Shown here: piece by piece, positions 23,323 through 30,481 of the stretch
Layout of the letters: each line of letters starts with the position of its first letter
How positions within the stretch are numbered: position 1 is the stretch's first letter
Assembly: GCA_951812955.1 (NCBI GenBank)
Contig: OX638340.1
Span: 800,001 to 864,000 of the forward strand
From: an uncultured Gemmatimonadota bacterium
GTDB taxonomy: Bacteria; JAAXHH01
DNA length: 64,000 bases
Direction of reading: 5' to 3'
Made by a program: the position numbers and the translations under genes
Notes under the pieces: generated by a model
Seen by the model: only the letters and a program-made list of their open reading frames with translations
What the model was told of the DNA's origin: nothing
The model's database searches: none

Positions 23323-23913
23323 TCATCTGTACTTGTCGTGCAGGCCCTGTCCGGCCAGGATCATGGGCAGAATCTTCTCCAGACGCTTTTTTCTGGTCTC
23401 CTCACGTTTGGCCTCGGCGACATGCTCGGCGAATGCTCTCCGCTTTCCAGGGGAGAACGCTTCGAAGCGTTCGCGGAGGTCTTCGTTTTCGGCCAGGACG
23501 ACGGCTAATTCGTCAGGAATCTGGAGAGGCTTGTTACGGTCCGCCTTGATCTCCCGGCCCTGGCGCTGGTTCTCGATAGACTCTTCTACGTAGGACCGAA
23601 GCAGCCCTTCGTCGATTTCGTCCTCGGTCCGGATTCTCCACTGTCTCAGGGCCTTTGTCCTGCCTTCCTGGGCATTGACCAGCACACCTCGTTCGTCACG
23701 CAGCAGCGCGCCCTGGTGGAACCATATGCTGACGAAGTCCTTGAAGGCGGCCAGACCGATCAGGTTTTTACCCTGAAAGGTATAGCACGGCGCGCCCCAC
23801 TTGACGGTTTCTACGAGTTCCGATTCGGCCACCACGGTGCGTAACCGGTCCAGGACTGAGCGCCATTCGGCGTGCGCCTCCAGGTACTCGGGTACGGTCT
23901 TGAATCGTTTCAA
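23323..23913 (-). CDS. YdeI/OmpD-associated (DUF1801) family protein
   Basis: MKRFKTVPEYLEAHAEW...VKWGAPCYTFQGKNLIGLAAFKDFVSIWFHQGA is the DUF1801 pattern; C-terminal ...RAFAEHVAEAKREETRKKRLEKI is YdeI-like. Confidence 0.6.
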   Translation of the reverse strand: MKRFKTVPEYLEAHAEWRSVLDRLRTVVAESELVETVKWGAPCYTFQGKNLIGLAAFKDFVSIWFHQGALLRDERGVLVNAQEGRTKALRQWRIRTEDEIDEGLLRSYVEESIENQRQGREIKADRNKPLQIPDELAVVLAENEDLRERFEAFSPGKRRAFAEHVAEAKREETRKKRLEKILPMILAGQGLHDKYR

Positions 23914-23976
23914 ATGATGTCCTTTCGAAGACGGTCAGATTGTGGGCCGGTGCCGGTCCCAGTGCGTTGGGACAAT

Positions 23977-26502
23977 TTACCGGGGTCCTCGCACCGCCGT
24001 GGAATCTATCGCTTTAGAACCGGGCGTGGAGGCGCCGCCGAACAGACTGAGCCGGCCCGAGATCGCGGCTTCCACGTCCAGGTCGTAAACCTGGGAAATG
24101 GTGGTAACGATGGGACGGATCTGCTTTTCAATGTAATGACCGTAATCAACGGGCGCGTCAAGCTGGCCTTCCGGTTGAGGTCCGTCTCGCGTGATCACGT
24201 ACCGAATGACGCCGGTGGGATTGTCCATGAGTCTGGCGGCCTTTACGTGGGGCGGTACCGAGCGCGTGTAGAACTCCACCGGTTTTCGCAGGTTCTTTCT
24301 GTACACCAGCAGGTCGTCTTTTTGCCCGGACTGTACAGAGAGGACCCACCTGAAGATCTCGTCTTCGATCTCGACACCGGGCGATTCGTGAAATACCCGG
24401 TCGAGCAGGACGGCCTGCAGCTGGTGCGCCAGGTCGGTCCAGTCCCTTCGTACTGCTTCCATCCCGACGATTTCCACCCGGTCGCCATCGCGGTCGCGTC
24501 TGAGCCCCGCGTATCCCTTGGCCCGTCCCCGTTCGCTGTCCCCCCGCATGGATGGCAACAGAAACCGGTGGTAGTGCTTTTCCAGTTCCAGTTCGAGAAA
24601 AGAGGAAACGCCATACCGCTCCTTGACGTGCTCGGCAAGCCGTTCGTTGATACGATTGCACACCGCGCCACCGAGCCTAAGGGCTTCACCCGGATCGGCA
24701 AGGTCTGGCGCGTTCAGATCGACGAAAACCGAGTCGGTATCCCCATACAGCACCTTGTAGCCGTCTTTCTCCAGCTCGTCGCGACACCACCTTAGAATGT
24801 AGTGGCCGAACTCGGTGATTGCGCCGGCCAGCTGGGGCGCGGCGAATCGGCAGGAAGCCGACGCCAGCACGCCGTAGAACGAATTCATGACGATCTTGTA
24901 GGTGAAGGAAGCAAGGTCGTCGCCGCTGGCCTTGGCCTCCTCGCGGCTTTTAAAGAACTGCTCCAGCATGGAGGGCAGGATGCCGGGCGTTCGGGTGAAT
25001 CGCGCGCCGTTGGGCGCGGTAAGACAGTCATCTTCGTCCATCTCGTCCCGTGCCTCGATATGGGCCAGGGGATCGATGTTGAAGGTTCGTATGATGGACG
25101 GATAAAGGCTCTTGAAATCAAAGACGAATATGTTCCTGTACAGCCCTGCCTTCGACGGTATGATGAGCCCCCCCGGCGCGCCGGCGCCCGGGGTACGGTC
25201 CACGCCGGTTGTCGGCGCCACCATGCTGCGCTGATGCAGGGCGTTGATGTAGATATTGTCGAAGGCGGCCACGCTCACCCAGGCGCGTTCCAGTGGCAGG
25301 CCCGTGAGCAGTCCCCTGCGCAAGGTAAGGTTGATCAACCCTTCCGCTTCCAGGATATCCAGAACCAGCCGGGCATCCTCCAGGCAATAGGCGCAGAAGA
25401 GGTTACGGTCCTCGCGATAGACTTCCGTGATCTGCTCCGCCCTCGAATTCCCCGAATCCTCTTCGAGCAGCTTACCCCGGCCCAGGATGGCGTGGGCCAC
25501 CGTGCCCAGCCGGTAGTCATCGAACCTTTGCAGCGTGCCGCGCAGGAGATGCAGGGCATCCAGGATCTGGCGCCCGTGGATGACCATGGTGCTGCCGCCC
25601 CAAACTTCGCCGGACCGGTACCAGGACTGGTCCGCCGTCCGCCCGAGCTGAAAAGGCACGTTCAGGTCCCTGAAGCGCCGTTGCAGCACTTTCATATCGA
25701 AGTCGACCAGGTTCCATCCGGTGAGCAGGTCGGGATCCATTTCGAGCAACCTCGCCGACACACCGCGAAGCATCGACGCCTCGTCGGCCCAGCAGACCAG
25801 GGAGGCCGGGTCACCCGGAGCGGGTGCGCCCACCATGTGGATTTCTTCCGATTCGACGCCCGAGATCGTATCCGCGAGGATCAAGCCGACGGCGTAAATG
25901 GTGGTCGCTTTCGGATCCGTTTCTATGTCCAGAGCCAGTACGCGGAATGACGGCTCCCAGTAAGCAGGCTTCAGCGTAGGGTTGGCATACACTCGGTCGA
26001 CCCGGTCGCCGGGCGTCCAGGAACCGCTGATCCGGACGCCGCCGCGCAATCCAAGTCCGATCAGGAACTGTCTGCCGAAAGGCAGGTCGCCTTCGTAACT
26101 TCGCGTGCCCTGGGCCTCGAGCCCTTTGGCCAGGCCGCGCTGATCCCGTACGCGGTCGCACTGGACGCCGACCACCGGTTCGCCATCCATGGTTGTGTAT
26201 TCCGACGGGACTAACCGTGCCGTGACCTCGTTGGAACCGATCCGGTCGGATGCCGCCTGCGTTTCCGAGGTCCTGACGAAGAGTGCAGGAGAAACGCGAT
26301 CATCCGTAAACAGGAACGTATGACCACCCTGGAGCTTGCCGACGCCGCAGATGACGTCACGTCCGCGCTCCGTGCGATGAAAGACGTGGAGCAGGTAGCC
26401 TACGTCTCCTCCGCCATCCGGGGATTCGTGCTGATCCGCGGGGTCACTGGACGGAAGTGAGCGATCCCTGCCGGGGTTGTGTTCAGTTTCAGATCTGGCC
26501 AT
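23977..26502 (-). CDS. polB: DNA polymerase II (family B, PolB)
   Basis: Exo motif LALDIETD; pol motifs [34 protein letters not shown]. Confidence 0.9.
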
Positions 26503-29446: not shown

Positions 29447-29476
29447 CCAGGTGACTCCGTAATACGTCTGGCACCT

Positions 29477-30481
29477 TCAGGGCCGGTAATGGTAGAAAGC
29501 GAGTTCTTCGTACTCCACGTTACTTTTAAGCGTCAGTCTGTGCGGGCTCGACACCCGGCTGATGATCTCTTTGTCCGCCAGCCATTCGCATACCGTCGTC
29601 ACGCCCCGGAGATTCATCTGGTTATCGAAGTATGTTTCGATTTCCGTGACCGAGCGGACCGAACCCTCCTCCGCCAGGTAATCGAGTATGGGCTGGAACA
29701 TTACAGGAATGCGCTCTTCCAGGTACGCCTCGATGCGCGTGAGGGCGCCGGCGATCGCTTCGCTGGAAACAGGCTGGTCGATCAGGCGGGTGTATACGGC
29801 ATCGAAAAAGTCCGGATTCAACCGAAGCGCCTGTTGGATGACTTCACGGCTGGCCAGTTGACTGTCGAGAAACACCTCAATCTTTGCCAGTCCGTTCACA
29901 CAGTGCAATATGTAAAGGAAACTGTAGTGAAGATCCTCCTTCACGTGAAACCACTTCTCGGCTTTGTACAGGGTAGGTATCACGAAAGCGCCGGCATGCA
30001 TGAGCTGCACCTGCCGGTCTCTCTCCTTAAGTTCCCCGATACCCTCGTACAGTTCGCGAATGGTTTCGTCCCGGGTAAACAGCAGGCGGCTTTCCGCGAA
30101 CGAGGCATGCATGAAGGAGCTTTGCAGGCCCCCTTCTATCATTTTCCTGAACGCGGAACGGGGCTGCATGAACACGTGAATGTATACGTCGTGTTCCAGG
30201 AGTGCCGCGCCTTCCGAGACCTCGTCGTCGTCCCTGCCTTCCTTGCGAAAAAGGTCCTTGTCGTCTCGTGTTACGACGATCAGGTCGATATCGGATTTCT
30301 CCCAGACACGGTCGGCGGAAAGGCTACCGAACAGAATCGCCGCAAGCACGTGGCGGTCCTGTTTCGCCTTCGCGACAAAGGCGTCGAGAGCTGCCTCGAA
30401 CCGCTGCTGTATAGACTGTGATGTGTTTTCCATCGAGGTATCCCGCCAGCCGAACAATTCTACCGCCCGGCCGTTTGACAT
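29477..30481 (-). CDS. nucleotidyltransferase-fold (Pol-beta superfamily; ANT/KNTase-like) protein
   Basis: GS...D.D NTase motif AAILFGSLSADRVWEKSDIDLIVV, followed by a ~200-aa helical C-terminal domain. Ends 30 nt upstream of uvrA on the same strand. Start is 30481 or 30433. Confidence 0.5.
   Translation of the reverse strand: MSNGRAVELFGWRDTSMENTSQSIQQRFEAALDAFVAKAKQDRHVLAAILFGSLSADRVWEKSDIDLIVVTRDDKDLFRKEGRDDDEVSEGAALLEHDVYIHVFMQPRSAFRKMIEGGLQSSFMHASFAESRLLFTRDETIRELYEGIGELKERDRQVQLMHAGAFVIPTLYKAEKWFHVKEDLHYSFLYILHCVNGLAKIEVFLDSQLASREVIQQALRLNPDFFDAVYTRLIDQPVSSEAIAGALTRIEAYLEERIPVMFQPILDYLAEEGSVRSVTEIETYFDNQMNLRGVTTVCEWLADKEIISRVSSPHRLTLKSNVEYEELAFYHYRP

Follow-up and report, generated by a model that had tools for sequence, protein, structure and literature searches.

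Introduction

Why should a gene for a nucleotidyltransferase (NTase) stand directly before uvrA, the gene for the damage sensor of nucleotide excision repair (NER)? The question is raised by a stretch of 64,000 nucleotides (the window) from an uncultured Gemmatimonadota bacterium (assembly GCA_951812955.1, contig OX638340.1, positions 800,001 to 864,000), in which an NTase-fold gene (29477-30481, minus strand) heads a run of co-directional genes whose second member is uvrA (26489-29446, minus strand). The comparison presented here indicates that these two genes form a conserved pair in distant bacterial lineages, and we propose, tentatively, that the NTase acts on or with UvrA.

The analysis was based on the 64-kb window and on the 10-kb flanks of related loci. 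A protein search with the window NTase returned 512 homologues, and the contigs of the distant ones were then inspected. A scan of genomes with the same NTase gave 16 loci from sponge-associated metagenome-assembled genomes (MAGs) labelled Gemmatimonadota or Latescibacterota, 14 of them with full flanks (the sponge-associated clade below); the best match was a 3.9-Mb chromosome with an NTase identity of 97%. A metagenome scan added 80 further loci at 44–59% identity. Deep conservation was counted over loci L017–L106, with NTase identities of 43–65%, and a locus was taken as informative when at least 250 bp were present downstream of the NTase gene (n = 77). All phylum names of related loci are labels on MAGs. 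The terminator and promoter scans were simple consensus matches.

Results

Conservation of the NTase–uvrA pair

uvrA was found directly downstream of the NTase gene, on the same strand, in 65 of the 77 informative loci, and after an insert in 5 others; 7 loci were without uvrA. The pairs are present in loci labelled Planctomycetes, Chloroflexota, Bacteroidetes and others, and the flanking genes differ each time. For example, uvrA follows directly in L017, whose NTase is 65% identical to that of the window and whose flanks are different, and in L020, which belongs to a Planctomycetes MAG. The two genes overlap by 20 nt in L023 (a 5.8-Mb contig), by 4 nt in a Chloroflexota MAG (L024) and by 11 nt in a Bacteroidetes-labelled MAG (L108). 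Over 75 loci, the median distance between the NTase stop codon and the first conserved UvrA residue was 41 nt, with less than 100 nt in 63 of them, which suggests that most true spacers are tiny or negative.

All-against-all clustering of the 1,408 open reading frames (ORFs) of these loci yielded NTase, UvrA and their shadow ORFs as the only recurrent families. No uvrB, uvrC, uvrD or ligase gene was a recurrent neighbour in the clustered loci (uvrD lies 3.4 kb off in one locus). Likewise, polB, ydeI, VOC and alkA, which follow the pair in the window, were never beside it outside the sponge-associated clade, among loci found by NTase homology. Since the pair recurs in 70 of the 77 informative loci of distant lineages, the arrangement is not a matter of chance. 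Judged by gene order, the evolutionary unit is a two-gene cassette, NTase then uvrA, to which genes specific to its lineage are added in the window.

The insert between the two genes is a 373-aa SMC_N/AAA_21 ATPase gene (6946-8067) in L025/L026, from an Abitibacteriaceae-labelled MAG; inserts are also present in L054, L055 and L068. Many of the linked UvrAs (e.g., L031, L045, L064, L078) bear a variable, basic N-terminal tail of 10–50 residues rich in Lys, Arg, Ser, Thr and Ala, ahead of the point where the conserved ABC module begins, and others bear none.

In the full-text literature, subscription-only papers being outside our reach, we found no description linking this type of NTase with uvrA, and a survey of the HEPN superfamily (PMC3710099) does not mention the association. 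The component families are known; what appears to be new is a conserved NER-linked NTase family, together with the sigma-fused form described below.

Sequence and fold of the NTase

The NTase gene is the first of the cluster and encodes 334 aa when read from the ATG at 30481, or 318 aa from the ATG at 30433. Pfam matches cover the N-terminal part only, with Polbeta (PF18765, E = 2.9e-8, 34.2 bits for a cutoff of 26.9) and NTP_transf_2 (PF01909). In NCBIfam, MntA was the sole match and remained below its cutoff. In an alignment of 31 family sequences from distant lineages (A1), the mean column identity was 59%, and the residues G36 S37, D48 x D50, E80, H86, K157, K160, R196 E197 and C282 E283 W284 were invariant. 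By its motifs, its PF18765 match and its fold, the protein is a member of the superfamily of DNA polymerase beta-like nucleotidyltransferases. The AlphaFold2 (AF2) model (pLDDT 87.9) showed an NTase domain (residues 1–135), a helical bundle (136–245) and a winged helix (246–318). In structure comparisons, the C-terminus resembled the winged helices of Hop2 and of the MecI/BlaI and Fur/PerR types, and also that of ZBP1. The fused HEPN-like domain is devoid of the Rx4-6H motif and reads R196-x3-[Q/H].

An exhaustive profile search gave 226 representatives at E ≤ 1e-30 (50% identity clustering) and 1,013 at E ≤ 1e-3. Such a small number of representatives suggests a compact and slowly evolving family, as expected of a partner of the slowly evolving UvrA. 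We also observed tandem-duplicated variants of about 530–650 aa (L021, L107; P0019, P0022–P0025, P0038), in which the second copy is without GS and DxD; those of L021 and L107 are not adjacent to uvrA. The degenerate second active site of these variants implies a KNTase-like dimer. Overall, it is probable that the protein is a dimeric enzyme of the KNTase-like kind, with intact active-site residues, a HEPN-like helical substrate-binding domain and a conserved, acidic winged helix. The mean net charge is −8.7 for the whole protein and −5.6 for the winged helix, whose third helix reads CEWLAD. This acidity, combined with the absence of a shared upstream motif in 72 loci (see below), argues against a sequence-specific DNA reader.

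The initial annotation of the window had hesitated between a regulatory NTase of the GlnE/MNT type and a plain aminoglycoside-resistance gene. The structure-based annotation did return a KNTase-like two-domain fold; the extra winged helix does not suit a plain ANT, the GlnE match was weak and MntA stayed under its cutoff. No ANT/Lnu family was among the Pfam and NCBIfam matches of the window NTase, and no match was detected in 72,556 plasmids. PADLOC assigned no defence model, with only weak minimal-NTase matches (PDC-S09, E = 3e-7, over the N-terminal 80 residues) and generic ABC/UvrA-like matches for UvrA. These searches speak against a mobile gene for resistance or defence, and against a plain aminoglycoside-resistance gene.

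The gene cluster in the window

Behind the NTase gene, the minus-strand run continues with uvrA (985 aa), polB (23977-26502, 841 aa), a gene for a 196-aa DUF1801 and OmdA/YdeI-type protein (23323-23913; PF08818 and PF13376), a gene for a 117-aa VOC/glyoxalase-fold protein (22854-23207; Glyoxalase, PF00903) and, as the last co-directional gene, one for a 304-aa AlkA-like HhH-GPD DNA glycosylase (21823-22737; Pfam HhH-GPD). The successive gaps are 30, −14, 63, 115 and 116 nt. A putative operon of four genes, from the NTase gene to the ydeI-like gene, had been described here before, with alkA immediately beyond. The ORF list, Pfam and NCBIfam confirmed these four genes, with their positions and identities, as well as their common direction, their short or overlapping junctions and the first two spacings; the third, given as 64 nt, is of 63 nt. 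The limit of four genes was not upheld, as the run comprises six and the conserved unit two, and the VOC gene separates alkA from the ydeI-like gene.

The uvrA product scored above the NCBIfam cutoffs of PRK00349 (1182.7 bits vs. 1147) and TIGR00630 (1157 vs. 729.8), and contains the Pfam domains UvrA_inter and UvrA_DNA-bind (PF17760, PF17755), i.e., the UvrB-interaction and insertion domains. Its alignment spanned solved class I UvrAs from end to end, with 905–1018 bits (9gxk, 1018; 2r6f, 946), as against 616 bits for the class II UvrA2 (2vf7) and 478 bits for the Ecm16-like 7sh1. In the translation, one can recognize the two Walker A motifs as well as the CxxC zinc modules. On these scores, the window uvrA codes for a canonical class I NER damage sensor. 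Its ATG is preceded, 8 nt upstream, by GGAG.

The polB product is a Pol II-type family B DNA polymerase, with 680.4 bits for NF004421 (DNA polymerase II, cutoff 570) and 421 bits for E. coli Pol II (1q8i). The exonuclease motifs (Exo I LDIETD, Exo II NLVDFD, Exo III YCLEDA) and the polymerase motifs (A DFKSLYPS, B KIVMNSFYG, C YGDTDS) were all read in the translation. The ATG of polB lies inside the end of uvrA, and the 14-nt overlap has the sequence ATGGCCAGATCTGA. The ydeI-like gene starts with TTG, with AAGGA 5 nt upstream, and its product gave no NCBIfam match and no sequence match among solved structures. For the alkA product, the NCBIfam AlkA and Ogg matches stayed under their cutoffs.

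The spacer between the ydeI-like and VOC genes contains a direct repeat at 23268-23309 (minus strand), formed by TTGACCTGAGCACCACGT and TTGACCTGAGCTGAGCACCACGT in this order, with a third TTGACC behind them. The repeat looks like a subclade-specific insertion, because the spacer measures only 43–61 nt in several clade members. Also, three VOC/glyoxalase-fold genes are found within 9 kb (21432-21803, plus strand; 22854-23207, minus strand; 14538-15176, plus strand), two of which flank alkA. The VOC fold includes bleomycin and mitomycin binding proteins.

Synteny in the sponge-associated clade

The order and orientation NTase-uvrA-polB-ydeI-VOC-alkA were kept in 12 of the 14 clade loci, where the NTase is 76–97% identical to that of the window. 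In the two exceptions, ydeI matches only from residue 81 (L004) or the contig stops inside polB (L008); the VOC gene is in the same place in all loci except L008 (13/14). The gaps are mostly below 100 nt in the 14 loci, with 43–146 nt between ydeI and VOC and 11–14 nt between VOC and alkA in L007, L010 and L011. Unrelated ankyrin genes on both sides of the cluster are equally syntenic. We rejected the clade synteny as evidence for an operon, because it extends to these ankyrin flanks and is thus too shallow to indicate functional coupling.

Among loci found through NTase homologues, where alone the uvrA-polB linkage was judged, polB and ydeI come after uvrA in this clade alone, where the NTase identity is 76% or more; neither L017 (65% identity) nor any of the 80 metagenome loci has them there. 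By this distribution, a single sponge-associated lineage acquired polB, the ydeI-like gene, the VOC gene and alkA recently, and the uvrA-polB overlap is a peculiarity of one symbiont clade.

Promoter, start codon and regulatory sites

A putative sigma-70-like promoter is present upstream of the NTase gene on the minus strand (30490-30518), with a −35 element TTGACC (30513-30518), a 17-nt spacer and a −10 element TAATTT (30490-30495). In an alignment of the upstream regions of 13 clade loci (A2), TTGAC was invariant, and so were the T/A positions in the −10 element (TTAATTT or TATATAA), in contrast to their variable surroundings. A generic promoter scan did not flag this element. It is separated from the conserved ATG by a leader of 50–70 nt, and the majority of NTase homologues begin at the window Met17 (30433). 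By these alignments, the start of the NTase gene is more likely at 30433 than at 30481. The ATG at 30481, located 8–9 nt past the conserved −10 element, could be a leaderless start.

In many loci (e.g., L051, L063, L070, L072, L081, L089, L098, L104), a −10-like hexamer (TACAAT, TAGAAT or TAAAAT) lies 6–12 nt before the predicted NTase start. This observation suggests leaderless or very short leaders, with the NTase gene heading the transcription unit in many lineages.

Internal promoters or terminators, which the initial annotation had considered as possible breaks between the genes, were not detected: the consensus scans gave no intrinsic-terminator-like site in any junction and no minus-strand sigma-70-like site between genes. 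Because uvrA and polB overlap, a single transcript is likely to start at the conserved promoter and to reach at least the end of polB, as far as can be predicted from the sequence, and its extension through alkA is plausible.

The lack of an E. coli- or Cheo-type LexA box upstream, already noted in the initial annotation, was confirmed and extends to eleven published types of LexA, RDRM and PafBC boxes (including the E. coli, Cheo, alphaproteobacterial, cyanobacterial, Verrucomicrobia, Xanthomonas, Fibrobacter, Myxococcus, Deinococcus RDRM and PafBC types): none was found in the upstream or internal spacers or before dinB, although the box type may differ in this lineage. The GAACC-N8-GGTTC repeat reported at 30738-30757 does exist, at 30745-30762, where the divergent globin-ankyrin gene has its ribosome-binding region, and shares bases with the Shine-Dalgarno sequence there (GAGGA, 30752-30756). 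Across the clade, conservation is limited to this Shine-Dalgarno core and does not extend to the arms of the repeat, which was rejected as an operator. The search for a family-wide operator was equally negative, as no 6–8-nt k-mer and no 5+5 palindrome rose above shuffled controls when the upstream 150 nt of 72 non-redundant loci were compared. A TATCCTTTT-like string in the leaders of L006–L014, about 36 nt before the NTase ATG, was judged a coincidence; among 98 upstream regions, an exact match was present only there. The resemblance to TATCCTTTT of GGTATCCTTTTC, found upstream of two sigma::NTase genes (L024, L071), is probably also a coincidence.

Fusions with ECF sigma factors

In three of the homologues listed (P0095, P0116 and P0117), and likewise in loci L024, L044, L071 and L076, an extracytoplasmic function (ECF) sigma factor with regions 2 and 4 is located N-terminal to a complete NTase module. 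The module comes directly after region 4, its catalytic residues are intact, and uvrA is directly downstream in all four loci. ECF sigma genes were not found beside unfused NTase genes. In the literature searched, no NTase-type extension of an ECF sigma factor is described.

In the window itself, a gene just past alkA (18961-21315, minus strand) codes for a fusion in which ankyrin repeats are joined to an ECF sigma factor. Between the sigma part of this protein and that of the sigma::NTase fusions of Chloroflexota, the identity is 43–47% (E = 4e-45), the PSxD(E/D)xF linker included. Judging from this similarity, one ECF group seems to carry differing C-terminal modules (ankyrin, NTase). We excluded the sigma::ankyrin gene from the cluster, because it belongs to the shallow synteny of the clade.

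Surroundings of the cluster

The window also contains dinB (43505-44674), 13 kb from the cluster, sfsA (45444-46490) and, some 5 kb past alkA, a DinB_2 gene (16252-16752). All three had been recognized previously and assigned, with the cluster, to a larger repair and tolerance neighbourhood. Their presence was verified; they lie about 5–15 kb from the cluster, with unrelated ankyrin, BNR, oxidoreductase and PNP-oxidase genes between, and the case for such a neighbourhood is weak. The AT-rich spacer upstream of dinB (44675-44807) contains GTATAGTT twice and GGTCAA twice. It showed no known LexA-box type and no 8–10-mer in common with the NTase upstream region.

The window is unusually rich in ankyrin-repeat genes (30764-32332, 33574-34452, 38313-39119 and 44808-45419 on the plus strand, 32310-33470 on the minus strand), which is consistent with the genome of a sponge symbiont. 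The first of them, a bacterial-globin::ankyrin fusion with a GTG start at 30764, diverges from the cluster. No Rfam family and no tRNA was detected within the 64 kb.

Discussion

A proposed partner of UvrA

We propose that the NTase is a UvrA-directed regulatory nucleotidyltransferase, or a nucleotide-dependent subunit, acting on or with UvrA, and we give this explanation a probability of about 0.45. A single promoter, the conserved sigma-70-like one before the NTase gene, would most likely serve the whole six-gene repair cluster. NTase and UvrA would be synthesized together, in many cases through translational coupling, and the NTase would act on or with UvrA by tuning its activity or its availability. 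The most likely form would be a protein-directed nucleotidylyltransferase in the style of GlnE or MntA, or else a nucleotide-dependent regulatory subunit, and the acidic winged helix would be a protein-contact module and not a DNA reader. The strict gene order, the tight junctions, the invariant catalytic residues, an evolution as slow as that of UvrA and an invariant acidic domain without any DNA motif, taken together, point to a partner of UvrA.

Several observations weigh against this proposal. uvrA is absent downstream in 7 of the 77 informative loci, including L022, which is a complete 6.1-Mb contig. No NTase-UvrA fusion protein appears among the matches listed, and the sole fusions found are with an ECF sigma factor, which points more naturally to a control of transcription. 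That the linked UvrAs share an N-terminal docking peptide was considered and rejected, as their tails are variable and without conserved motif. Also, KNTase and LinB, the closest enzymes with an established function, have small molecules and not proteins as substrates, and the idea that the NTase touches or modifies UvrA is drawn from analogy. The co-transcription of six genes is, for its part, deduced from spacing and simple scans only. A more elaborate form of the proposal, in which the NTase would bind UvrA, read its engagement with damaged DNA and respond by nucleotidylation of UvrA or of some other target or, where it is fused to an ECF sigma factor, by releasing or activating the latter, in a LexA-independent damage response centred on the NER sensor and common to several little-studied phyla, seems to us decidedly unlikely.

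The sigma fusions, with uvrA directly downstream in all four loci, would suit an NTase module that senses conditions for, or regulates, uvrA transcription through its winged helix, a sigma factor or RNA polymerase, independently of LexA, and the fused NTase would then be a C-terminal regulatory extension gating sigma activity. ECF groups with such extensions are known, as in ECF41/42-type sigma factors, where they serve as regulatory domains; the resemblance of the winged helix to the DNA-binding domains of MecI/BlaI, Fur/PerR and Hop2 and the lack of any published LexA-box type upstream fit as well. However, this winged helix is acidic, and its putative recognition helix (CEWLAD) has no basic or polar DNA-reading residues; the helix hardly varies within the family, but the upstream regions of the 72 loci are not enriched in any conserved operator, palindrome or k-mer. 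Furthermore, a pure ligand sensor would not need the full catalytic set, which is invariant, and the unfused NTase genes have no ECF sigma gene beside them. This explanation is thus doubtful. We consider it unlikely that the NTase is an ANT(4')/Lnu-like small-molecule O-nucleotidylyltransferase, co-expressed with UvrA and inactivating a cationic natural product that damages or binds DNA, so that the two would give a double protection, the one disabling the toxin and the other repairing its lesions. KNTase is acidic for its polycationic substrates, and the present protein is similarly acidic; VOC/glyoxalase-fold genes and alkA accompany it in the window. UvrA-like paralogues are moreover used by antibiotic producers as protection against DNA-binding drugs, and one such structure, 7sh1, is among the UvrA matches. 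Nevertheless, the identity with ANTs is low (11–16%), no resistance family passes its cutoff, plasmids gave no match, and ANTs have nothing that corresponds to the additional, invariant winged helix. The strong conservation across phyla is tied to a canonical class I uvrA and not to a drug-resistance paralogue, and the VOC and alkA companions are limited to one clade.

Since the Pol-beta superfamily includes template-independent polymerases, and the winged helix resembles those of the nucleic-acid binders Hop2 and ZBP1, the NTase might work on nucleic acid, by adding nucleotides to 3' ends of DNA or RNA or by making short oligonucleotide signals in the manner of HalB of the Hailong system, in connection with UvrA-dependent incision. 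Both the whole protein and its winged helix are acidic, though, the TM-scores with HalB are low (0.26–0.42), the PADLOC matches to minimal NTases are weak, and no nuclease, ligase or effector recurs as a neighbour, so that we regard this as very unlikely. Finally, the adjacency might be meaningless, with a housekeeping NTase sharing the uvrA promoter and a window cluster that is a chance co-directional run. The ankyrin genes, which are just as syntenic within the sponge clade, and the 7 loci without uvrA would agree with this. But the pair is kept in 70 of 77 loci while all flanks change, its junctions are very short or overlapping, and the link survives the fusion to a sigma factor, which makes an accidental association extremely improbable.

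To our knowledge, bacterial NER is treated as a closed set comprising UvrA, UvrB, UvrC, UvrD and, for transcription coupling, Mfd. If the proposed partnership is real, a gene that precedes uvrA in about 90% of its occurrences and in several phyla would constitute a new accessory or regulatory part of NER. Its carriers include Planctomycetes, Chloroflexota, Gemmatimonadota and soil and sponge MAGs, in which the regulation of the DNA-damage response is essentially uncharted. The sigma-factor fusions offer a handle on whether the NTase module feeds into transcription. Of narrower interest are the uvrA-polB overlap and the ydeI-like, VOC and alkA genes, which reflect how repair and tolerance genes have gathered locally in sponge symbionts.

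Comparison with known systems

Among the closest likenesses is the YgxA-like protein 3c18 of Exiguobacterium sibiricum, which shares the three-domain fold, with an NTase domain, a helical bundle and a C-terminal winged helix. Its identity with the window NTase is 14%, and it is a structural-genomics entry without assigned function. The corresponding Pfam family (PF22339, YgxA-like_sub_bind) gave no match with the window NTase at E ≤ 1e-3 and faint matches on the tandem variants, and the family profile retrieved 3c18 with E = 4.5e-4. The literature searched holds no link between YgxA-like proteins and uvrA.

KNTase/ANT(4') and LinB share with the window NTase the two-domain fold, NTase plus helical domain. 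The identity with solved ANT and LinB structures is 4–16%, and no ANT/Lnu cutoff was reached. Unlike ANTs, the NTase has an extra, invariant and acidic winged helix, is chromosomal and tied to uvrA, and is conserved across phyla.

In MntA-HepT, GlnE and GlnD, an NTase is combined with HEPN-type domains and nucleotidylates a specific protein, and in MNT-HEPN systems the partner is encoded next door (PMC3710099). These protein-directed systems provide the analogy that underlies the proposed action on UvrA. The window NTase differs from MntA in its score (22.8 bits for the NF047752 equivalog, cutoff 60) and in its neighbour, which is uvrA and not a HepT/HEPN toxin. Its HEPN-like domain is fused and without Rx4-6H, unlike that of the MntA-HepT type VII toxin-antitoxin. 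With GlnE, the Foldseek match was weak (E = 1e-2, TM 0.27).

Compared with ECF41/42-type sigma factors, the NTase module occupies the place of their C-terminal extension in P0095, P0116 and P0117, whereas most members of the family are unfused. Finally, the window contains the same families as the E. coli SOS genes, namely class I UvrA, Pol II and Pol IV. In E. coli, uvrA, polB and dinB are scattered, each with its own LexA box. In the window, by contrast, uvrA and polB, free of any published LexA-box type, overlap by 14 nt and stand together behind the NTase gene.

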